Part shown: positions 1,410 to 40,245 of the stretch, piece by piece
Layout of the letters: every line of letters begins with the position of its first letter
Numbering within the stretch: position 1 is the first letter of the stretch
Virus record (IMG/VR): IMGVR_UViG_3300009156_000017
Length of the DNA: 40,245 nucleotides
Source of the DNA: a virus
Direction: 5' to 3' (one strand)
Position numbers and translations under genes: made by a program
Notes under the pieces: generated by a model
Told to the model about the DNA's origin: nothing
Database searches by the model: none
Seen by the model: only the letters and a program-made list of their open reading frames with translations

Positions 1410-2291
1410 ATGGGAAAAAACAACGATCAAATCGTCGGCAATGTTTATGAGACCTACGATTACGAAAAATTTAAAATCATGCCCGAGAATCGTGGGCGCA
1501 AGGAAACCAAGGGCCTCAACGAACGAAAGCTTACAACGCTGCAGCACATGATCGACAACGGTACATGGATCGAGGATATGGAAAACGTCCGGGTTAACTC
1601 CGTTTTTGAAATAGTCGCCGGGACGCATACCTTCGAAGTCCTTAAACGCAACGGCAAGCCTATACGGTACCAGGTTACTACCGATCCCCATTTCAACGAG
1701 GTTACCAAGCGCGACCTTATCGGGGCGATGTACAACGTAAATACCGTTACCACCTCCTGGACCTCCTCAGAACTATTCAATGCGGCCATACAATGCAAGG
1801 CGCCGCTCGCCGTCCTCATGCAGGAAATAATCGAGGACCACGACAACTTTTTTCAATGGACCGATCTAATGGGTCTGCTCCAAAGGGACAGCAGCTATTT
1901 TATCGGGCGCTGGCGGAAAACGAACATGGGAACCTTCGAGGACAAGGCGCTGCTGGAACAGGCACGCGAGCCCGCCTTTGAGGCCGAGGTGAAATCGTTC
2001 GCCAAGCTAAACTTGAAGGTAAGGATCTCCGCCCGGCGGGGACTGATTATAAAGGCGGCCTACGATATTCTTTGGCACGCCAGGGAACATGTTAACCCAT
2101 CGCTATTCCGAAAGTCGCTCGCTATGATGCCCGAGCAGCTGGTTACCTCATCCAGGGCCAACGACAACGACGGATGCCGCAGGATGCTGATTCAGCACTA
2201 CAACAAATCGCAAGGCCAGGAAGTGGAAACGGCCTCCGTAATTTTTGCTTTGAAGAAGAAGGGAGTTGAAGAACCCGTTTTGGAACTGTAG
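1410..2291 (+). CDS. ParB N-terminal-domain-like protein (tentative), 293 aa
   Basis: N-terminal segment FEIVAGTHTFEVLKRNGKPIRY resembles the ParB/DGQHR-type nuclease-like fold region. Judged by eye only. Confidence 0.55.
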   Translation: MGKNNDQIVGNVYETYDYEKFKIMPENRGRKETKGLNERKLTTLQHMIDNGTWIEDMENVRVNSVFEIVAGTHTFEVLKRNGKPIRYQVTTDPHFNEVTKRDLIGAMYNVNTVTTSWTSSELFNAAIQCKAPLAVLMQEIIEDHDNFFQWTDLMGLLQRDSSYFIGRWRKTNMGTFEDKALLEQAREPAFEAEVKSFAKLNLKVRISARRGLIIKAAYDILWHAREHVNPSLFRKSLAMMPEQLVTSSRANDNDGCRRMLIQHYNKSQGQEVETASVIFALKKKGVEEPVLEL

Positions 2292-2301
2292 GTTATGAGC
2301 C

Positions 2302-2571
2302 ATGCAAGAAAAAAATTCCTTGGACTCCTGGACCTTTTGGCAAAAGCAGCCACATGGGGCAGCTCACCCGGAGCCGTCGATATTGATAGAGGCTTTCCAT
2401 GATGTTATTTCTATACGAGCGGAAGGCAAGCACGTAACATTGAATTACGAAAGCGTCGACGAATTTTGTAAACTGCTCAAGTTTATAAAGCGCAACGTCG
2501 ACTGGAAAGGTAAAACCCGGAAGGGGAAGAAAACGATCTACAAGGATGATGGGAAAGATAACGCAGTATGA
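2302..2571 (+). CDS. Hypothetical protein (89 aa)
   Basis: ATG ORF on the same strand as its neighbours. The antisense 200-aa ORF has junk-like composition. Confidence 0.5.
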   Translation: MQEKNSLDSWTFWQKQPHGAAHPEPSILIEAFHDVISIRAEGKHVTLNYESVDEFCKLLKFIKRNVDWKGKTRKGKKTIYKDDGKDNAV

Positions 2572-2869
2572 ATCTAACAGCCCCTGCCCGTATTGTGGAT
2601 GTATCATGGGAAGCGTCGGATGCCTTGGCCCAGGGCCGGAGCAGGCCCCTGGCCAGGAGGGCGTTACCATTTGCCTTGAGTGCTTAAATATGTTAAGCTT
2701 TACCCCCGAGGGGAAGCTGGAAAAAATGTCGGTTGAAACGTATAGTCGTATCGTTAACGACCAGGAAGTTATGTTCAGGATTGATGCGGCGCGAGTGCTG
2801 GCCCGGCTATACAAGGAATGGGTCCGCGCAGGACGCCCTGGCCATGATCCGACAAAAAAAAATTTGTAG
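2546..2869 (+). CDS. Hypothetical zinc-ribbon protein (107 aa)
   Basis: CPYCGC and CLEC pairs form a CxxC...CxxC arrangement. Overlaps the upstream ORF end. Confidence 0.5.
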   Translation: MMGKITQYESNSPCPYCGCIMGSVGCLGPGPEQAPGQEGVTICLECLNMLSFTPEGKLEKMSVETYSRIVNDQEVMFRIDAARVLARLYKEWVRAGRPGHDPTKKNL

Positions 2870-2890
2870 AGCCCATCTATAGATCCCGCT

Positions 2891-2927
2891 GGCATACCGG
2901 GGCCTAATCGTATGCCACCAATTTTTT
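2891..2927 (+). terminator. Hairpin plus T-run (intrinsic terminator-like)
   Basis: GGCATAC (2891-2897) pairs with GTATGCC (2910-2916) around a 12-nt loop. It is followed by accaaTTTTTT ending at 2927. Confidence 0.4.
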
Positions 2928-3086
2928 ATGAAACCGATCCCTTTTATCCTGATCATTCTTCTCTTCGCCGCCCAGGTGGTATTGATGTTGGTTGAACCCT
3001 ACGATGTACACGCTATGGTACACGTTATCCTTTCGGCCCTGATGATTATGATTATATCCACCCGAACAAATTATGGAACGCGATAA
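2928..3086 (+). CDS. Small membrane protein (52 aa), below the ORF-track cutoff
   Basis: Hand translation gives MKPIPFILIILLFAAQVVLMLVEPYDVHAMVHVILSALMIMIISTRTNYGTR with two hydrophobic segments. Its stop overlaps the ATG at 3073. Confidence 0.45.
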   Translation: MKPIPFILIILLFAAQVVLMLVEPYDVHAMVHVILSALMIMIISTRTNYGTR

Positions 3087-3351
3087 ACTTTACAGGCGCC
3101 ACGGCAGGCTGGCATTTTCCTTTACCATTTTAACGCTACTCATGAGTTTGACCCTGGCCGTTCTCTTCTTTGTAGCCCCGGAGAACCGGAAAGTATCGGC
3201 TTTGATTTACGGCGCGTGGGCTACCTTAGGGATAGTGGTCCTGAGCGTTGAAACTTACCTGTTCAACAAGATAAGGAAGTTGTATGAGCAGGACCGGGAG
3301 GAGCTACGGAGGAACATTGAAATGTTAAAGCGAGGTCCACAACAACCCTAA
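3073..3351 (+). CDS. Membrane protein (92 aa, two predicted TM segments)
   Basis: Hydrophobic stretches FSFTILTLLMSLTLAVLFFV and ALIYGAWATLGIVVLSV, followed by a charged C-terminal tail. Confidence 0.6.
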   Translation: MERDKLYRRHGRLAFSFTILTLLMSLTLAVLFFVAPENRKVSALIYGAWATLGIVVLSVETYLFNKIRKLYEQDREELRRNIEMLKRGPQQP

Positions 3352-3559: not shown

Positions 3560-3590
3560 ATATTACATAAGATTATCGTAAAAAATAAAG

Positions 3591-3640
3591 TTGGTTTCTG
3601 TTACGGATATCAAACTAAGTGCTACCTTTGGGTATACCAA
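3591..3640 (+). promoter_or_regulatory. Conserved promoter element, copy 1
   Basis: TTGGTTTCTGTTACGGATATCAAA, an 8-nt spacer, then TACCTTTG (3623-3630, an exact TAnnTTTG). The ATG at 3649 is 19 nt downstream. Confidence 0.6.
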
Positions 3641-3648
3641 ATACGAAT

Positions 3649-3846
3649 ATGAAAAACAAGAACGAAGAATCCCCCGCAACAATTTTAGCCGTAAAAAAGA
3701 AGGATATCCTGGCGCGTTTACAGGCCCTCAGCGCGACGATCGCTACCTATGGCGACGGGGAGAAGGTACATTACGGCCACGTAGGTAGCCTGGCCCACGT
3801 ACAGGACGAACTTCGCAATCTTGCGGAGATGTTCAACGTAAAATAA
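3649..3846 (+). CDS. Hypothetical small protein (65 aa)
   Basis: The internal ATG of ORF 3619..3846 was chosen because it follows the conserved promoter and has the aaATGaaaaac start context. Confidence 0.6.
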   Translation: MKNKNEESPATILAVKKKDILARLQALSATIATYGDGEKVHYGHVGSLAHVQDELRNLAEMFNVK

Positions 3847-3850
3847 ATAC

Positions 3851-3900
3851 TTGGTTTTTGTTACGTATATCAAATTAAAACGTACCTTAGACCTATAATT
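3851..3900 (+). promoter_or_regulatory. Conserved promoter element, copy 2
   Basis: TTGGTTTTTGTTACGTATATCAAA, an 8-nt spacer, then TACCTTAG (3883-3890). The ATG at 3910 is 20 nt downstream. Confidence 0.55.
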
Positions 3901-3909
3901 AAAACGCAA

Positions 3910-4152
3910 ATGAAAACGAAAAACTTGATCAAGGCCCTTACGAAAGCCGGTGTAGAATTTGAGAAGCTAGATTTCAACAACTCCCTGGGGGTATACAATA
4001 CCTCTACCGTTTGGGATTGGTTTGGGATCCAAGGCGAGGAGGTCGTATTTATTGAAACCTTCAACAAAAAAACCGGCGCCTCAAAGAAGGGTCCCGCTCA
4101 GGAGGCGAAGGTAATCGCCTCTATAGAAGAAAGAACTAACGTAAAATTTTAA
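3910..4152 (+). CDS. Hypothetical small protein (80 aa)
   Basis: ATG ORF directly behind promoter copy 2. Confidence 0.6.
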   Translation: MKTKNLIKALTKAGVEFEKLDFNNSLGVYNTSTVWDWFGIQGEEVVFIETFNKKTGASKKGPAQEAKVIASIEERTNVKF

Positions 4153-6588: not shown

Positions 6589-9081
6589 TTATTTGTAGTT
6601 TAAGTATCCATGAATAATATTGGTATCGGTCGCGACAGCTTCCTTCTGGCCCGTCATTCGAACTACGATCTTATGGCTGCCCTTAGGTAGGGTCCAGGTT
6701 TTTATGAGCTGGATGTTGTTGGTTGTTGTCGGTCCGTAGAGACTTAGTTTTTCTTCCTCGCCCTGGTCAATGGTCACCCCAGCATAACCGTGGTTGGCGG
6801 CCTTCTCAGAAAACCACTGCAGCGATGTACCCGTAAAGGAAAACTCAAAGTTGTTTCCCGTCGTGGTGGTAAAGGTCAGCGGCCCCGCCGAGGAGTTGAA
6901 CTTTGTCCACGCCCCTACATAACGCATCCTGCTGTCATCCAAGGGAACCGTTTCATAGTCTTCTTCTTGGTATACCAACTCCAAATTCTTGAATCGATAA
7001 CCTTCAAGGATGACGGCCTGAATTGTGGTGTCCTTTATTTTTGGAATCGAATCAACCGGCGGCACGTCGGGTATGGTATCCGTTGGGTCTGGTGGCACCG
7101 GGGGGGTTATGCCCGTAGGAACATAGCCGGGAACCCAGTCGTCGCCGGGTTGGTAGGCGCCCAGGTCTGGTCCTGTAGTTATGCCTGCAATTTGAAGGGC
7201 GCGACCCTTCGCCGGCGAGGTTGATTTTAACCTATATTTCAAACCGCCTTCGCCGGTCATGACAAATTGTGGATCCGTATTTTGTAAGCTGCTCTTCCCC
7301 GGCGGCGTTCCTTGCGAGGTTACCTGGCCTTTGAAGATGTTGTGCTGTTCGTCCGGTGGATTGCCATTGCCCCAATTAACATTTATAGGTTTCCACATGA
7401 TATTATTTCGCATCACGTCGTGCGGGGAATTTTCGTAAGTCGTATAGGTGTAGTGAGATTCGCTCGCGCAAGTATTGTTATAATAGTACGACGGACCTGC
7501 TATACGGTGCTCGAAGTGCATCTGGTTGTAAATATCCCCGACGTCCTGCGTCAAGCCCGTCCAATTGTTATAGAAAACATTGTGGTGTACCGTATAGGGA
7601 CCGGAGGCCTGGTCGAAATACGTTCCCCGTTGGCTGCCGTCGAGTTTGGCTCCTGTAGGATCCGCTTTGACCCCGTCGTCATGGAACCAGTTGTGATGTA
7701 TTACCGAGCCGGTAAGGTTACGGAAGCCCCAGGAATAAACCGCCCCCAGGTCGATGCTTAACATTCCCCAGCCGGAGCAGTCGTTGTATGAAACTATGAT
7801 ATTAAAGTTCTGGTGGGATCCCCCGCCGGTATAGCTGAATCCCATATCGATGGAGGAGCGGCCTGTGCGCCTGATGGTATTTCGCGTAAAGGTAACGTTG
7901 TCGTAATCGCCCCAGAAGGACATCGGTGCGCCCCAGGCGCCGTCGTAAGAAATATCTTCGAACAAATTATTTTCTACCCTTCCGTCCTGGCCTACCCAAA
8001 TGACGTGGGAGGCGCTCCAACGAAATTCAGAATTTTTTACAACGTTGTTTCTGCCAAGTAATTTTGTGCCGACCTCCTTGGCGTTACCGTAGCCAGGAAA
8101 AGCATCGGGATAGGTTAGCGAGTGGTTCATGAAACGGGCGCGGATGTTGTCGATGATCGTGCCGTCCGTATTGGTATCGCCGTGGGCAGGATCGCATCCG
8201 AAGAACTGCAGGCCTATGATTTTTATATTATCCTTTCCGCGAATATCGAAGCCCCAATTTCGGGCTTTATATTCCACGCCATGAGGAACGCCGCCGCCGG
8301 CCTGCCGAAAGTATAAAGTATTGTTTTCATAAAACCATTCCTTTTCAGCATCGAGCAGAACAAGTTTATCGCAGACATAATAGTACTTCCTGTAACGGTA
8401 GTTATCGCCCAGGTCATTATAGTTGAGCGTGTTGGTAGAAGGCTGGCTGTTAACGTTACGGGTATGGGGCCAGAACCAACCGTGGACGATCAACTTGGCG
8501 CCGCTCAATCCTGCTATCAGGCTATTGTCCTGCAGCGATGTTCTATCGAATCTTGACATTTGGGATACGTGGCGCATCTTAGAAATATTCATCAGGTCGG
8601 CTTCCGTTTGGATATTCGGATAGCGCGACAAAAACATCATGTTGCCGTCGTCAAAAATTTGATTTGCCAGTAGGGAAGTATTGCTGGTTATAACAGACTG
8701 CGGATTGGATAGCGTAACCGTTGTTTTATAGATCTGTCCGCTATGGACCGTCCAGGGGGTTGTTATTTGATTCAGTCCTCTGATTTCCACGGCAGCCCCT
8801 TCGGCAGCTTGGAAGGTTACGTCGTTGGATGCTGGCGTAGCCGTTTCCCTGTAGATGCCTTCACCTATGGTTATAACAGAACCGCTTGATGCTACGCTTG
8901 CTGCCTTGCTGATGGTAAGGAAAGGACTTGAAGCACTGCCGTTGTTTGAGTCGTTTCCTTCCTTGGCTACATACAAGGCCAGCCCGTATTGTGTCGGCTT
9001 TGTACATTGCCTGACGATGAATATCAGTAATACGATTAAAAGCACAACTCCGACGATGTAAAGAATTTTTCTTTTGGTCAT
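6589..9081 (-). CDS. Right-handed beta-helix (pectate-lyase-fold) glycanase/depolymerase with N-terminal membrane anchor or signal and C-terminal carbohydrate-binding-like domain (830 aa)
   Basis: The N-terminus MTKRKILYIVGVVLLIVLLIFIV is strongly hydrophobic. YVAKEGNDSNNGSASSPFLTISKAASVASSGSVITIGEGIYRE is the typical start of DUF1565/pectin-lyase-fold proteins. The C-terminal ~130 aa look like a beta-sandwich CBM. Confidence 0.65.
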   Translation of the reverse strand: MTKRKILYIVGVVLLIVLLIFIVRQCTKPTQYGLALYVAKEGNDSNNGSASSPFLTISKAASVASSGSVITIGEGIYRETATPASNDVTFQAAEGAAVEIRGLNQITTPWTVHSGQIYKTTVTLSNPQSVITSNTSLLANQIFDDGNMMFLSRYPNIQTEADLMNISKMRHVSQMSRFDRTSLQDNSLIAGLSGAKLIVHGWFWPHTRNVNSQPSTNTLNYNDLGDNYRYRKYYYVCDKLVLLDAEKEWFYENNTLYFRQAGGGVPHGVEYKARNWGFDIRGKDNIKIIGLQFFGCDPAHGDTNTDGTIIDNIRARFMNHSLTYPDAFPGYGNAKEVGTKLLGRNNVVKNSEFRWSASHVIWVGQDGRVENNLFEDISYDGAWGAPMSFWGDYDNVTFTRNTIRRTGRSSIDMGFSYTGGGSHQNFNIIVSYNDCSGWGMLSIDLGAVYSWGFRNLTGSVIHHNWFHDDGVKADPTGAKLDGSQRGTYFDQASGPYTVHHNVFYNNWTGLTQDVGDIYNQMHFEHRIAGPSYYYNNTCASESHYTYTTYENSPHDVMRNNIMWKPINVNWGNGNPPDEQHNIFKGQVTSQGTPPGKSSLQNTDPQFVMTGEGGLKYRLKSTSPAKGRALQIAGITTGPDLGAYQPGDDWVPGYVPTGITPPVPPDPTDTIPDVPPVDSIPKIKDTTIQAVILEGYRFKNLELVYQEEDYETVPLDDSRMRYVGAWTKFNSSAGPLTFTTTTGNNFEFSFTGTSLQWFSEKAANHGYAGVTIDQGEEEKLSLYGPTTTNNIQLIKTWTLPKGSHKIVVRMTGQKEAVATDTNIIHGYLNYK

Positions 9082-36447: not shown

Positions 36448-36963
36448 ATGCAGCCGATCGATACGCTATACAATGGAAATTTTTTTCGTTCCCGACTTGA
36501 AGCACGCTGGGCATTCTTCTTCGACCAGGTAAATATCCGGTATGAGTATGAGCAGCAAGGCTTCCGCCACAACGGGGAGTGCTACCTGCCGGATTTCTTT
36601 TTGCCCGACGTATGGCTACGCCACAGCCACCGTGGGGTATACATCGAAATCAAACCGGAGAGCTACCCGACCAGCAACATACCGGCGGGCAAGTGGTTTA
36701 CCAAGCCCCTGGTACTATTCACAGGCACGCCAGATAAAATGATCTGGGGGGATCCCTCCTGTGACGGTAATGGATTCCAGCTATACCCTGGGTGGGACAA
36801 CTGTATGGCTATATGGAAATGCCCCAAATGTGGAACCTTTAAGATTGAATTTCTCGAGGGCAACTATGACTCCTGCCCCCTGGGACATCCGGCCAAGAAC
36901 GATTACGATTTCTTAAAGGCCGCCGCACAAAAAACTATTTTTAAACGCTTCGAACATGCCTGA
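36448..36963 (+). CDS. PD-(D/E)xK-type nuclease with C-terminal zinc ribbon (171 aa, tentative)
   Basis: FRSRLEARWAFFFDQVNIRYEYE...YLPDFFL...VYIEIKP is the TnsA/Hjc-like endonuclease pattern. CPKCG...CPLGH lies near the C-terminus. Confidence 0.55.
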   Translation: MQPIDTLYNGNFFRSRLEARWAFFFDQVNIRYEYEQQGFRHNGECYLPDFFLPDVWLRHSHRGVYIEIKPESYPTSNIPAGKWFTKPLVLFTGTPDKMIWGDPSCDGNGFQLYPGWDNCMAIWKCPKCGTFKIEFLEGNYDSCPLGHPAKNDYDFLKAAAQKTIFKRFEHA

Positions 36964-37729
36964 GGGACTGCCATATTTTAAGTTTTTTCCACGCACCTAT
37001 ACCAACGGAAGGATCACCCTTTTGGATGAGCATACCCAGGGTGTTTTTATCAACGTATGCTCCTATTATTGGATGAAAAATGGGCTGGTTTCTGAGGAAG
37101 AAATCCGACTTCGTTTTCGCAAAAAAAATAAATATTTGGAAAGGTTGTTTAAACAACGATTAATAAAAAAAATAAATTCGAAAATTTCCATCTCATTTCT
37201 GGACGAACAACTGGAAACGTTTGAGAATATCAGAAAAAAAAATAGTGAGAATGGAAAGCTGGGAGGCCGAAAACAGGAAGCGACCGCTTTAGGGTCGGTA
37301 AGCGAAACGGAAGCGACCGTTAACCCGTCGGTAAGCGAGCGCCAAGGCATTGGAGATAAAGAAGAAGATAAAGATAAAGATGAAGAGGGAGAGGAAAAAG
37401 AAAAAGAAAAAGGCGGGGGCGCTGACGCGCTTTTACCGGGCCCCCTTGGGGTGAAATTGAACGAGTGGGAACAGCACCTCCGGGAAAAGAAATGCCGCCT
37501 CACTCCATCCACCAAAAAATTGCAAATTGAAAAACTGAGGGCGATGTCGCCTAGCCTCGCCGTTGCTACGATAAATTTTTCTATCACCAACGGTTACACA
37601 GGACTTTTTGAAGAACGTCAAAAGCAGCAAAATGGAAAACGTACCCATTCCAAACAGCAGCAAGCCAGAGAAGGCCGTGACTATCTGGCGGAGCACTACG
37701 GCGATAAACTTGGGGGAAAGAAGATTTGA
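36956..37729 (+). CDS. Replication-initiation-type protein (DUF4373/DUF1376/DnaD-like N-terminus), 257 aa
   Basis: LPYFKFFPRTYTNGRITLLDEHTQGVFINVCSYYWMKNG resembles the Lin1244/DUF4373 N-domain. An acidic low-complexity linker follows. Confidence 0.5.
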   Translation: MPEGLPYFKFFPRTYTNGRITLLDEHTQGVFINVCSYYWMKNGLVSEEEIRLRFRKKNKYLERLFKQRLIKKINSKISISFLDEQLETFENIRKKNSENGKLGGRKQEATALGSVSETEATVNPSVSERQGIGDKEEDKDKDEEGEEKEKEKGGGADALLPGPLGVKLNEWEQHLREKKCRLTPSTKKLQIEKLRAMSPSLAVATINFSITNGYTGLFEERQKQQNGKRTHSKQQQAREGRDYLAEHYGDKLGGKKI

Positions 37730-38369
37730 TAAAATCGTCGCATCGGTAGGCCTATCGGTAAAAGAAATAATCGACGCAACCCCAATCGCCGTCCTGCAGT
37801 ATGAGCTACAAGACGACCGCGAGGTAATCGAAAGCTTTCTCGCCGTCCAGATCCAACTCCTAACCGAGTCGGTAAACGTACAGCAGAACATTCAACCATA
37901 CCAGATCCCGTCAATAGCCAAAACGTTGATCGATCTGTTCCCGGTTGAAAGCCTGGAAGATTTCGTCCTATGCTTCAAGCGTGGAGCCCTGGCGTTGTAC
38001 GGGCCTATCTACAACCGCCTCGACGCTTCAATCCTGGTGGAGTGGATGCAAAAGCATCTCGACGAGAAGTACATGCTCATCGAGGCCAAGGTTACCCAGG
38101 AGCAGGCCAAGCATACCAACGACAACCAAGTGAACTATGAGGCCTTCAAAGCCCGCGCCCCGGAGGTATTCGCCAAGGCCCAAAACAAAAACAACGCTAT
38201 GGATATGGGCTACGAGCGTTACAAGCTGGAAAACCCCTACAGGTATTACACCGTCGAGGGGGTTGAAGTCTACGCAAGAAGCCAGGAGCTGGCCGAGCGG
38301 CAAGTGGAAGCATTGATCCAATCGGGTGAACTTGAAAGGGTGCATCATGACAAGAAAGCAGATCATTGA
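37632..38369 (+). CDS. Hypothetical replication-module protein (245 aa)
   Basis: The ATG at 37632 with the aaaATGgaaaac context is preferred over the TTG at 37608. Overlaps the upstream gene by 98 nt. Confidence 0.5.
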   Translation: MENVPIPNSSKPEKAVTIWRSTTAINLGERRFDKIVASVGLSVKEIIDATPIAVLQYELQDDREVIESFLAVQIQLLTESVNVQQNIQPYQIPSIAKTLIDLFPVESLEDFVLCFKRGALALYGPIYNRLDASILVEWMQKHLDEKYMLIEAKVTQEQAKHTNDNQVNYEAFKARAPEVFAKAQNKNNAMDMGYERYKLENPYRYYTVEGVEVYARSQELAERQVEALIQSGELERVHHDKKADH

Positions 38370-38628
38370 TGAAAACCTGGAACTACGGTGCGCACTTGTT
38401 GACGCGAGGGAATTGCTCAACAAGGCGGAGAAAACTATTCAAGCGATGGTTCGCGAAAGGAAACAAACGCTGCAGGAGATTCAGGATCTCAAGGACGTTA
38501 TCAGATTTGCCAGCAACTTGGAGGCCGATAGGAAGTATCGATCGATGAGTGAGCAACGCAAGCACTGGAACGCGCAGCAGGTATTTATGAAAATCAATAG
38601 TGATGCAAACGATAAGCAAACGACTTAA
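38347..38628 (+). CDS. Coiled-coil hypothetical protein (93 aa)
   Basis: The ATG at 38347 is preferred over the GTG at 38326. Confidence 0.45.
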   Translation: MTRKQIIDENLELRCALVDARELLNKAEKTIQAMVRERKQTLQEIQDLKDVIRFASNLEADRKYRSMSEQRKHWNAQQVFMKINSDANDKQTT

Positions 38629-38647
38629 CTTTTAAACAATAAAAATC

Positions 38648-39295
38648 ATGAAAACAACAGCAACCAAGGAGTCAGCAAAAGAAGTCATCGAGCATGCCGA
38701 ACTTTTAAACGGTCTTGACAACCAGGGGAAGTTAGAAGTTCCCTACATCGTACAGGTAGAAATCGTCGGCTCATGCCCGCTCATTTTTCACAAGTGGAAC
38801 GTAGAGGAAGTCGCTATAAAAGCTGCAGCTAAGAAGGGCAGCAAGGAAAAGAAAACCGACAACATCGAGTCGTTTATTTATCGAGACAACGATGGGGATA
38901 TATGCTTACCGGGGGAATACCTACGGATGGCTATGTGCTATGCGGCGAAGTTCCGCCAGGATCCTCGCTCGCCTAAGAAGTCCGCCTTCGATTTATTCAA
39001 GGCCGGGTTGGTATCGATGACCGAGCTGGCAAAGGTAAACGGTGGATCCAAGACTTGGGATTTCATCGATCAGCGGCGCGTCGTTGTACAGCGAAACGCC
39101 ATCACACGAATGAGGCCAGCGTTCCTTGCTGGCTGGAGCGCCGAGATAGAAATAGCCGTGGGCGTGCCGGAGTATATCGATACCGTTGCGTTCAGGGAAG
39201 TTTTAGAAATGGCCGGTCGATTGATCGGCGTCGGCGACTTTAGACCATCATACGGCAGATTTCAAATCTCTCATTGCAAAGTAAAAAAATATTAA
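38648..39295 (+). CDS. Conserved-looking hypothetical protein (215 aa) with a Gly-rich C-terminal loop
   Basis: Clean ATG ORF and last gene before the G-rich region. The C-terminus RPAFLAGWSAEIEI...AGRLIGVGDFRPSYGRFQI is reminiscent of RAMP-type glycine-rich loops. Unverified. Confidence 0.6.
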   Translation: MKTTATKESAKEVIEHAELLNGLDNQGKLEVPYIVQVEIVGSCPLIFHKWNVEEVAIKAAAKKGSKEKKTDNIESFIYRDNDGDICLPGEYLRMAMCYAAKFRQDPRSPKKSAFDLFKAGLVSMTELAKVNGGSKTWDFIDQRRVVVQRNAITRMRPAFLAGWSAEIEIAVGVPEYIDTVAFREVLEMAGRLIGVGDFRPSYGRFQISHCKVKKY

Positions 39296-39714
39296 GGTCG
39301 GGACCGGTTAGCACTGGCGGGTTCGGGCAAGCTTCGGTCCGGTATTCGTCCGGTATGGTAGGATCTGGCATGGGCCCTACGGGGCGCCAGGAGGTATGGC
39401 GTATCGAGATGGGGATAGGCGGGGCTTGGCCCGGTATATTGCGAGGCAATCCGGGTTGGGGCCTTGGAGCGGTACGGTACGGAGTGGTGGGGTGGGCTAC
39501 GTTATGGCCGGGGCCGGTGGGGTTTGGTCTGGCAAGGATAGATCAGGCCCGGCGAGGTAAATGCGGGGTGGGCTTCGGTAAGGCGAGGGCCTGGCTCAGG
39601 CACAAAAGGGTTTGGCCTGGAAAGTATCGGCGAGCGATGGCGAGGTGAGTTTGGGAAGGGCGAGGTTTGGTCTGCCATAGTGTGGTCAAGGTGAGTCGCG
39701 GTCGGGTGCGCTTT

Positions 39715-39738
39715 GGTCTGGTGGGGGCCCTTCGGGGC
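39715..39738 (+). repeat. 24-nt exact repeat, copy 1 (contains a cUUCGg hairpin)
   Basis: ggtctggtgggggcccttcggggc. GCCC-TTCG-GGGC forms a 4-bp stem with a UUCG tetraloop. Confidence 0.9.
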
Positions 39739-39961
39739 GCGATCAGGTCTGGGTGGCGCGGCGCATAGCGGTTGGGCTGGGCGCGGTTCGGTTCTTCATG
39801 GTACGGTAAGGGTTGGCGCGGTGAGGAAAGGGAATGGATCGGTATTCATGGGCAAGGCTCGGTTATCTAGGGGCCCCGTTGTGGGGCGCGAAGTGTGGTG
39901 CGGAGTGGTACGGTTAGCAATGGCTGCGAGAGGTTGATCAAGGCATGGCGAGATCGGCTCG

Positions 39962-39985
39962 GGTCTGGTGGGGGCCCTTCGGGGC
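39962..39985 (+). repeat. 24-nt exact repeat, copy 2
   Basis: Identical to 39715-39738 and 247 nt downstream of it. Confidence 0.9.
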
Positions 39986-40000
39986 ACAAAGTTAAGGGCT

Positions 40001-40032
40001 TGGTCGGATGAGGTATGGCGTGGTCGGATGAG
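40001..40032 (+). repeat. Tandem 12-nt repeat TGGTCGGATGAG with a 20-nt period
   Basis: Exact copies at 40001-40012 and 40021-40032. Confidence 0.85.
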
Positions 40033-40122
40033 CTGAGGCATGGCAAGATCCGGCAGGGCTATTCCCGGTCTGGCTTTCGGTTGGCAACGGCGTGGTGCGG
40101 TTTGCTGGGGTGCTGTTCGGTT

Positions 40123-40245
40123 CGGATTTTTTTAACCAAACGAATTATTTTATGACGGATAAAGAGAAACATTTTCAGCTATACGATGAGATCATAAAGC
40201 TTCCCGACGGCCTTCAGTTTCTACGGGACGTCGATGAGCTGATAA
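40123..40245. repeat. Right copy of the exact 123-bp terminal direct repeat
   Basis: Identical to 1-123. It contains the first 94 nt (40152-40245) of the ORF annotated at 30..302. Confidence 0.95.

Follow-up and report, generated by a model that had tools for sequence, protein, structure and literature searches.

A five-nucleotide-periodic, G-rich island in a 40-kb phage genome is very probably the guide array of a VIPR system

The window analysed here is the whole 40,245-nt sequence of virus record IMGVR_UViG_3300009156_000017, and our subject is its G-rich island at 39296-40122, which lies directly downstream of a + strand gene encoding a protein of 215 amino acids (aa). We conclude with high confidence that the island is the vrRNA array of a VIPR (Viral Interference Programmable Repeat) system and that the 215-aa product of the upstream gene is its Vipr protein. 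This conclusion rests on GGYNN units (Y, pyrimidine; N, any base) lying on the strand of vipr, on blocks of 10-16 units, most of them with hairpin tails, on the homology of the protein to Vipr in sequence and in fold together with retention of the residues that read GGY, on the pairing of protein and repeat across about 140 otherwise unrelated loci, and on a first guide that spells out the best-conserved motif of Vipr itself; the published account of VIPR agrees with each of these points. VIPR was described in two 2026 preprints from the Doudna laboratory (bioRxiv 10.64898/2026.04.26.720920, 10.64898/2026.04.26.720927): a minimal phage-borne RAMP protein, Vipr, polymerises on vrRNAs in which 9-16 YNNGG repeats precede a structured tail that is conserved at the 3' end; within each protomer GGY is buried and NN left exposed to pair with double-stranded DNA, every third base being skipped; and binding silences genes of competing phages, satellites and prophages. 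For the system of Escherichia phage SUSP1, DNA targeting was demonstrated experimentally.

The island contains 44.3% G, 18.9% C, 22.2% T and 14.6% A, whereas elsewhere in the window each base accounts for about 25%, and the G skew of the region is 0.25-0.42. An earlier note on this DNA, made from the letters alone, gave two 60-nt base counts (31 G, 14 C, 11 T and 4 A; 31 G, 8 C, 14 T and 7 A) that were exact, and listed recurring words that we recovered: a 24-nt repeat at 39715 and 39962, GGTCTGG five times, TTTGGTCTG three times, TTCGG nine times, GAGGTATGGCGT at 39391 and 40010, TGGTCGGATGAG at 40001 and 40021, and CGGAGTGGT at 39480 and 39901. Its (g/c)ATGGC(g/a) words were also present, at 39636, 39944 and 40039, 2-3 nt away from where it had placed them. 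The direct-repeat families in the region are short, imperfect and irregularly spaced, and Tandem Repeats Finder found no array; the view that the words are merely dispersed was wrong, because the whole island has a strong 5-nt period. The autocorrelation of G was about 0.3 at lags of 5, 10, 15 and 20 and negative between those lags. The island holds 123 runs of two or more G, 87 of which are only GG, and 80 of the 122 end-to-end spacings between runs equal 5, 10 or 15 nt (55 are of 5 nt and 23 of 10 nt), and a further 18 are of 6 nt; measured from start to start, 48% of the spacings are multiples of 5, versus 21 ± 4% in shuffled sequences. The base following GG is T in 56 cases, C in 52 and A in 15, giving a pyrimidine in 108 of 123, and the next two positions are near-even in composition. 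The local period-5 signal is about 6, roughly six times the genome median of 1.07, with no comparable site elsewhere in the 40 kb. The island is thus about 165 copies of a degenerate 5-nt unit, GG-Y-N-N, with occasional 1-nt phase slips.

Since no reading frame can be reconciled with a period of 5 nt, the island is non-coding, as had been proposed before; no open reading frame (ORF) longer than 124 aa crosses 39296-40122, no shorter ORF was supported, and a collagen-like or frameshifted coding reading of the island was rejected. The island was 100% identical in four independently assembled contigs of one 40.1-kb genome, each from a different sample (JGI 3300009094, ENA ERZ27258587, Logan SRR5460694 and Logan SRR5583254) and therefore is not an assembly artefact; these four contigs, which carry the exact same protein, are identical throughout, so that there is no sequence variation among them. 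The feature pointed out in the earlier note was therefore genuine; what it missed was the GGYNN pentamer period and the functional partner immediately upstream.

That partner, the vipr gene (38648-39295, + strand), was assigned from homology and predicted fold. Pfam, PADLOC and NCBIfam recognised neither the protein nor the products of its neighbours, and its sole library family match was PHROG 4652, of unknown function. Compared as a single sequence with SUSP1 Vipr (PDB 36pp_D) by phmmer, residues 134-208 matched with E = 1.2e-6; a profile built from 34 homologs matched the same chain with E = 7.2e-11, profile positions 30-204 aligning with chain residues 4-189. An AlphaFold2 model (pLDDT, the predicted per-residue confidence, 74; pTM, the predicted template-modelling score, 0.71) was used for a Foldseek search, in which the top PDB matches were all RAMPs of the Cas7 type (type VII Cas7, Csm3, Cmr4 and gRAMP), with E values from 5e-5 and a probability of 1.0. 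In SUSP1 Vipr, H17, E71, R138, D177, W178 and R179 bind G1, G2 and Y3 of the repeat (10.64898/2026.04.26.720927). In the profile alignment these correspond to H48, E90, R156, D197, F198 and R199 of the window protein, so that five are identical and the sixth, W to F, retains an aromatic ring. H48, E90, R156, D197 and R199 are invariant across the alignment of 34 homologs, and F198 falls outside the invariant and near-invariant columns. A large protein collection contained 3,603 homologs; one homolog is annotated in Chryseolinea, and the closest genome match, at 70% identity, is a Chitinophagaceae metagenome-assembled genome (MAG). The host is probably a soil Bacteroidota.

An initial search of viral contigs with the single protein gave one distant locus, without an island. 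We then compared the DNA around four homologs with 70-78% identity (loci L006 to L009), and subsequently 155 further loci taken from genomes and from IMG/VR. All four of the first relatives have a G-rich (32-41% G), period-5 island touching the vipr homolog on the same strand, in differing neighbourhoods. The island is downstream of the homolog in L006, L007 and L009 and upstream of it in L008. In L007 the flanking genes are convergent, unrelated and on the other strand, indicating that gene and island form a self-contained module. When we required an in-phase GGNNN tract of at least 40 nt and at least five units, no more than 1 kb from the vipr homolog and on the same strand, such a tract was found at 132 of 142 distinct loci. 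Tract density was 121.5 nt/kb near the gene on its own strand versus 3.3 on the opposite strand, and 5.4 and 2.2 farther off. No other neighbour of the window vipr gene was conserved in the 160 loci compared. The in-phase tract of the window array, 631 nt, is the sixth largest among 143 Vipr loci, for which the median is 196 nt.

To define unit boundaries we used a Viterbi parse of the array into GGYNN units. The array, period 5, spans 39291-40133 on the + strand, with about 165 units in roughly eight (8-10) guide blocks; it begins on the stop codon of vipr (ATTAA followed by GGTCG) and ends in GGATT and a T run, seven T at 40127-40133. The guide of putative vrRNA 1 (guide 1; 39291-39371) comprises 16 units, namely 11 units, a 1-nt insertion at 39346, and five more units. 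Tail hairpin 1, GCCC-UACG-GGGC, follows directly after its last unit (39374-39385). The block before hairpin 2 (39506-39586) consists of 11 units, a 1-nt insertion at 39561 and five units, and is followed by GCCUG-GCU-CAGGC (39589-39601) and ACAAAA. Hairpin 3, GCCC-UUCG-GGGC, is at 39727-39738, and hairpin 4, GCCCC-GUUGU-GGGGC, at 39873-39887. A block of 16 uninterrupted units (39892-39971) precedes hairpin 5, again GCCC-UUCG-GGGC, at 39974-39985 and then ACAAAG. A further 16-unit block (39997-40076) has no hairpin after it, and the last block (40079-40133) has 10 units ending in GGATT before the T run, which likely marks the 3' end of the array transcript. Clean blocks of 16 units plus hairpin are thus found at 39291-39385, 39506-39601 and 39892-39985. 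The guides at 39291 and 39506 share the same layout, 11 units, one extra nucleotide, five units, G and hairpin; as a clade-wide rule this 11+1+5 layout was dropped, as it occurs twice in the window and not in L006, L009, L085 or L086.

All five hairpins, which lie between guides as separators, had been listed in the earlier note, which had also called for a covariation check. In the relatives, a run of 10-16 units leads into GG, then a GC hairpin of 4-5 bp, then ACAA or ACTAA; ten such tail hairpins were 100% paired, with compensatory changes in three of the five stem pairs. Hairpin 2 with its ACAA element recurs in L006, L007, L009, L085 and L086, and the GGAT(T)n ending also closes the arrays of L006 and L009. 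A scan of the + strand from 38200 to 40245, which does not model Bacteroidota promoters, scored no sigma-70-like promoter and no intrinsic terminator; as the array starts on the vipr stop codon with no promoter-like site on the + strand before it, the arrangement is compatible with co-transcription with vipr. The proposal of a long structured noncoding RNA made with the upstream genes was in the right direction, as + strand RNAs are most likely and the hairpins are conserved; its suggestion of a G-quadruplex did not hold. With the Rfam 15 covariance models at gathering thresholds the whole window gave no match, and at E ≤ 10 it gave one chance snoRNA match only (16 bits), with no hammerhead or other ribozyme in the array. 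A tRNA and tmRNA search found nothing, and blastn of the region against GenBank phages gave no match.

For decoding, each GGY was replaced by one wildcard, following the published conversion, and the window and all fetched loci (0.96 Mb) were scanned; the target threshold was the 80% NN match of the VIPR paper, that is, 18/22 for an 11-unit block and 26/32 for 16 units. The 11-unit 5' block of guide 1 is antisense to ATn GGn GAn TTn CGn CCn AGn TAn GGn CGn TT, or (I/M)GDFRPSYGRF, and its five units after the insertion continue upstream through xRLIG. The whole NN code of guide 1 is therefore antisense to codons for xRLIG(I/M)GDFRPSYGRF, and the G-loop motif of Vipr is GRLIG(I/V)GDFRPSYGRF; guide 1 reads 15 of 16 successive codons in a conserved gene. 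The target codons continue gaplessly across the insertion at 39346, so that one 6-nt unit seems to be tolerated. Against rival vipr genes, the 11-unit block reached at least 18/22 in 121 of 140 distinct loci, including 22/22 with the G-loop segment of L052 (ATCGGCGACTTCCGACCGAGTTACGGCCGGTTC); the phage's own vipr gave 17/22 (77%). With the full 16 units, 70 of 158 loci scored at least 26/32, the highest being 29, and the own gene gave 23/32. When the spacing was varied, skipping one base gave 138 sites of at least 18/22, skipping 0 or 2 gave none, and skipping 3 gave only the trivial self-match; shuffling the order of the units gave at most 18. As a mapping of 5 nt onto 3 nt cannot arise by sequence duplication, these results independently support both the 1-nt-skip code and the function of the array.

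The self counterpart of the guide-1 target is the G-loop coding segment of the phage's own vipr (39215-39262, + strand; GRLIGVGDFRPSYGRF), which at 23/32 lies below 80%, and no in-register self match of at least 18/20 was found anywhere in the genome. The own gene differs from guide 1 at V195 and at all five six-fold-degenerate codons (R191 CGA, L192 TTG, R199 AGA, S201 TCA and R204 AGA), each of which belongs to the codon family that guide 1 does not match. R199 and R204 have the only AGA codons among the 13 Arg codons of the gene, and AGA makes up 9% of Arg codons genome-wide. In this sample, guides against vipr are rare: only the window and L115 have one among 143 loci. In L115, + strand windows at 3124-3190 match up to eight distinct vipr genes at 18-19/20 over residues ~151-163, the conserved thumb motif NAITRMRPAF.

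Following the VIPR preprints, the array would be transcribed together with vipr and its transcript cut into vrRNAs of about 100 nt, on which one Vipr protomer per pentamer would hide GGY and present the NN dinucleotide; the resulting filament would pair NN with the first and second bases of successive triplets in double-stranded DNA and so silence transcription of genes in competing phages or prophages. Guide 1 appears, from its matches, to be aimed at the vipr gene of rival phages. vrRNA 1 would bind rival vipr genes on their sense strand, across the codons of the G-loop, the stretch that reads the GG of every repeat and is hard to change, so that the machinery of many rivals could be silenced at once. 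The phage's own vipr would escape because each of its Arg, Leu and Ser codons beneath the guide comes from the alternative family (CGN versus AGR, CTN versus TTR, AGY versus TCN); a code that passes over the wobble base can detect no synonymous change except a switch of codon family, and, as VIPR has no protospacer-adjacent motif, the own copy would be protected solely through such recoding. We put forward only tentatively this joint reading of vrRNA 1 as a broad-spectrum anti-VIPR guide on the G-loop with the own copy protected purely by synonymous recoding, and self-exemption by choice of six-fold codon family, taken by itself, is a hypothesis we hold with equal reserve.

Several observations weigh against these interpretations, either of the array or of its first guide. 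The blocks at 39386-39505, 39602-39724 and 39739-39870 (the latter two reaching 39738 and 39887 with their hairpins) exceed 16 units or are irregular, and allow no sequence-only cut into vrRNAs; that the array is transcribed, where its RNA is processed and how many mature vrRNAs result (about 8-10) are all things that we infer. A vap accessory gene beside vipr is typical of VIPR, if not universal (10.64898/2026.04.26.720920), and none was recognisable here, although a clade-specific one may be present, the flanking 100-aa and 90-aa ORFs having no family match and no conserved neighbour appearing in the 160 loci. Targets were found for one guide only, exact seeds of five other blocks having given nothing above chance. 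The closest relatives also have AGR at R199, so that the recoding may be inherited rather than selected in this phage, and the codon pattern may instead reflect the same pressure on the whole clade. Finally, the best guide-1 matches lie in high-GC MAG and virus contigs, the closest low-GC relatives reaching only 23-26/32.

The earlier note had considered an iteron-type replication origin or R-loop priming zone near the replication module. On such a reading, a G-rich non-template strand would form a stable RNA-DNA hybrid that primes replication, close to the module of RecT, exonuclease and O-like genes. The strong G skew (0.25-0.42) and the position directly after the recombination and replication genes would suit such a role, and mammalian class-switch R-loop regions also look like G-rich pentamer repeats. 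The element, however, moves with vipr, on its strand, into unrelated neighbourhoods: it tracks the vipr homolog and not replication genes, which some loci lack nearby; it lies between convergent, unrelated genes in L007 and upstream of vipr by an integrase module in L008; and its tracts are concentrated on the vipr strand at the densities given above. GGY is moreover kept at strict 5-nt spacing with NN free, as in an RNA code read by a protein rather than in general G-richness, and there are neither iterons nor an AT-rich unwinding element. We consider an origin here very improbable. Inside the O-like replication gene (36956-37729), 37340-37460 encodes a low-complexity linker rich in Asp, Glu and Lys (GDKEEDKDKDEEGEEKEKEKG), overlapped by the long alternative minus-strand ORFs 37066-37590 and 37433-37891. 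As lambda-like phages have their origin within the O gene, this segment is a better origin candidate than the island.

A different possibility is that a long G/U-rich transcript acts as a sponge or decoy that titrates either Vipr or an RNA-binding protein of the host, DNA not being targeted at all. Sponges of the CsrB/RsmZ type carry many repeated short protein-binding motifs on one transcript, and the finding of targets for one of about eight guides only would be in keeping with this; a sponge leaves unexplained, however, why guide 1 decodes to 15/16 consecutive codons and does so with a 1-nt skip only, and the homologous SUSP1 system was shown experimentally to target DNA. We give this explanation as little credence as an origin. 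Marginally less probable still is that the island is a decayed pentanucleotide microsatellite, neutral junk, or a set of Chi-like, G-quadruplex or rut elements. Slippage can expand repeat tracts, TCTGGTGG is one mismatch from E. coli Chi, and a minus-strand transcript would be C-rich. Yet the identity of the island in four independent assemblies, the preservation of GG phase while NN is free, and the association with vipr in 132/142 loci all speak against junk, TCTGGTGG has just two copies in the island and four genome-wide, which does not bear out a Chi-like cluster, the island contains zero canonical (G3+N1-7)x4 quadruplex motifs, no Rfam family matched, and nothing was found in support of a C-rich rut barrier. 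The VIPR array thus remains by far the best account of the island.

In the searches for targets of the other guides we used exact xNN seeds of 8-9 units; published searches tolerate 20% mismatch. The 9-unit seeds of the guides at 39506 and 39892 gave no matches in viral contigs, and no target was found for either block; in metagenome contigs a 9-unit seed gave 10 matches, about the chance number, none in a long ORF. The 8-unit seeds of the blocks at 39997, 39892, 39644 and 39785 gave 30, 1, 12 and 28 matches, respectively, with extension beyond the seed at chance level except in L233 (IMGVR_UViG_3300033463_004076). There, at 7536-7799, an ORF of 81-88 aa (LRESELSITKFAEKCGMCKSTMVDF) matches block 39785-39870 in frame at 26/34 NN, close to the threshold, with an 8-unit seed, two mismatched units and then four consecutive perfect units. 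By eye this ORF looks helix-turn-helix-like, with no Pfam match, and it is a possible diverged target class that we offer as a lead only. Out-of-register island windows matching low-complexity G-rich DNA (L146 5930-6006) were discarded as artefacts; the G-rich, triplet-periodic segment L146 5926-6010 yielded many spurious 'targets' at 18-19/20, a caution for automated searches for vrRNA targets.

Some other Vipr loci differ in arrangement. In L008 (identical to L010; Chitinophagaceae MAG contig CAZCKF010000001.1, with an integrase at 1-1012), whose homolog is 70% identical, five GGYNN tracts lie upstream of vipr at 3570-3995, each ending in GGAT(T)n followed by an AT-rich spacer and without hairpins; they have the appearance of vrRNAs each transcribed and terminated on its own, within an element resembling a prophage. 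In L063, from a Dormibacterota MAG, a 544-nt GGNNN tract lies on the minus strand at ~2000-3000, opposite the vipr strand and just upstream, the only clear case of a divergent array in the locus set. The archaeal locus L078 (Bathyarchaeia MAG contig CAYNQC010000002.1) has a longer Vipr homolog, the match spanning 928 nt, and very long tracts, 656 nt within 1 kb downstream and 946 nt beyond. In the cyanobacterium Stenomitos rutilans (scaffold JAHHIE010000002.1; L017 and L018), two Vipr matches about 100 kb apart have the same identity (56%) and E-value, which suggests duplicated or twin prophage-borne VIPR loci.

Bases 1-123 of the window are identical to 40123-40245 over all 123 bp, and the window therefore represents a complete circular (or terminally redundant) phage genome of 40,122 bp. 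The island abuts this assembly junction, and the next gene, which encodes 90 aa, starts at 40152 (window position 30).

With the array assigned to VIPR, an anonymous, junk-like G-rich island in the complete 40.1-kb genome of a soil phage can be annotated as an RNA-guided system. VIPR, characterised so far in E. coli and Pseudomonas elements, is thereby extended to a probable Bacteroidota phage whose array is among the largest of its clade, and the 1-nt-skip code receives independent, purely computational confirmation in a Vipr only distantly related to that of SUSP1. The first guide offers a specific case, open to experiment, of conflict between VIPR systems over the G-loop; if the tentative reading is true, self/non-self discrimination in that conflict depends on which six-fold codon family is used. 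When genomes are scanned, a period-5 GG signal beside an ORF of about 200 aa with a C-terminal GDFRPxYGR motif is a reliable flag for VIPR.

Among known systems, the backbone of Class 1 CRISPR-Cas (Cas7/Csm3/Cmr4) shares with Vipr the fold of RNA recognition motif, G-loop and thumb, one protomer per fixed number of guide nucleotides, and periodic base flipping; the period there is 6 nt with five pairing bases, whereas here it is 5 nt with two. In contrast to Class 1 systems, there is neither a repeat-spacer array here nor a cas1, cas2, cas5, cas6 or large-subunit gene; guide and repeat are one and the same. A CRISPR array, in which identical direct repeats of 23-50 nt would alternate with unique spacers of similar length near cas genes, was rejected as an explanation, as Tandem Repeats Finder gave no array and PADLOC and NCBIfam found no cas genes in the three upstream neighbours tested, vipr included. 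Other types of VIPR have staggered, hammerhead-interspersed or single-vrRNA layouts, and continuous multi-guide arrays occur in those other types; there is no hammerhead here, and even within this Vipr clade L008 has a different layout, its five separately terminated units lying upstream of vipr. The nearest likeness is to the VIPR type II exemplars, Escherichia phage SUSP1 and a Pseudomonas fulva prophage, with which the window shares a small (~20 kDa) stand-alone RAMP with common GGY-reading residues, same-strand flanking YNNGG/GGYNN arrays, the 1-nt-skip code and a phage-borne location; guides of 9-16 units with a structured element on their 3' side are shared as far as the three clean blocks go, other blocks being longer or having no hairpin. 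SUSP1 Vipr is nevertheless a distant sequence match to the window protein. The tail here is a 4-5-bp GC hairpin followed by ACAA or GCGA, whereas that of SUSP1 is a pseudoknot; the array is ~830 nt long with 8-10 guide blocks, as against 1 + 3 vrRNAs in SUSP1; and, unlike in both exemplars, it begins on the vipr stop codon, with no recognisable vap and in a likely soil Bacteroidota host. VIPR as a kind is thus already known, having been first described in April-June 2026; what is specific here is the hairpin-type tail, the large array, the lack of a recognisable vap, the first guide apparently directed at the G-loop, and the probable Bacteroidota host.

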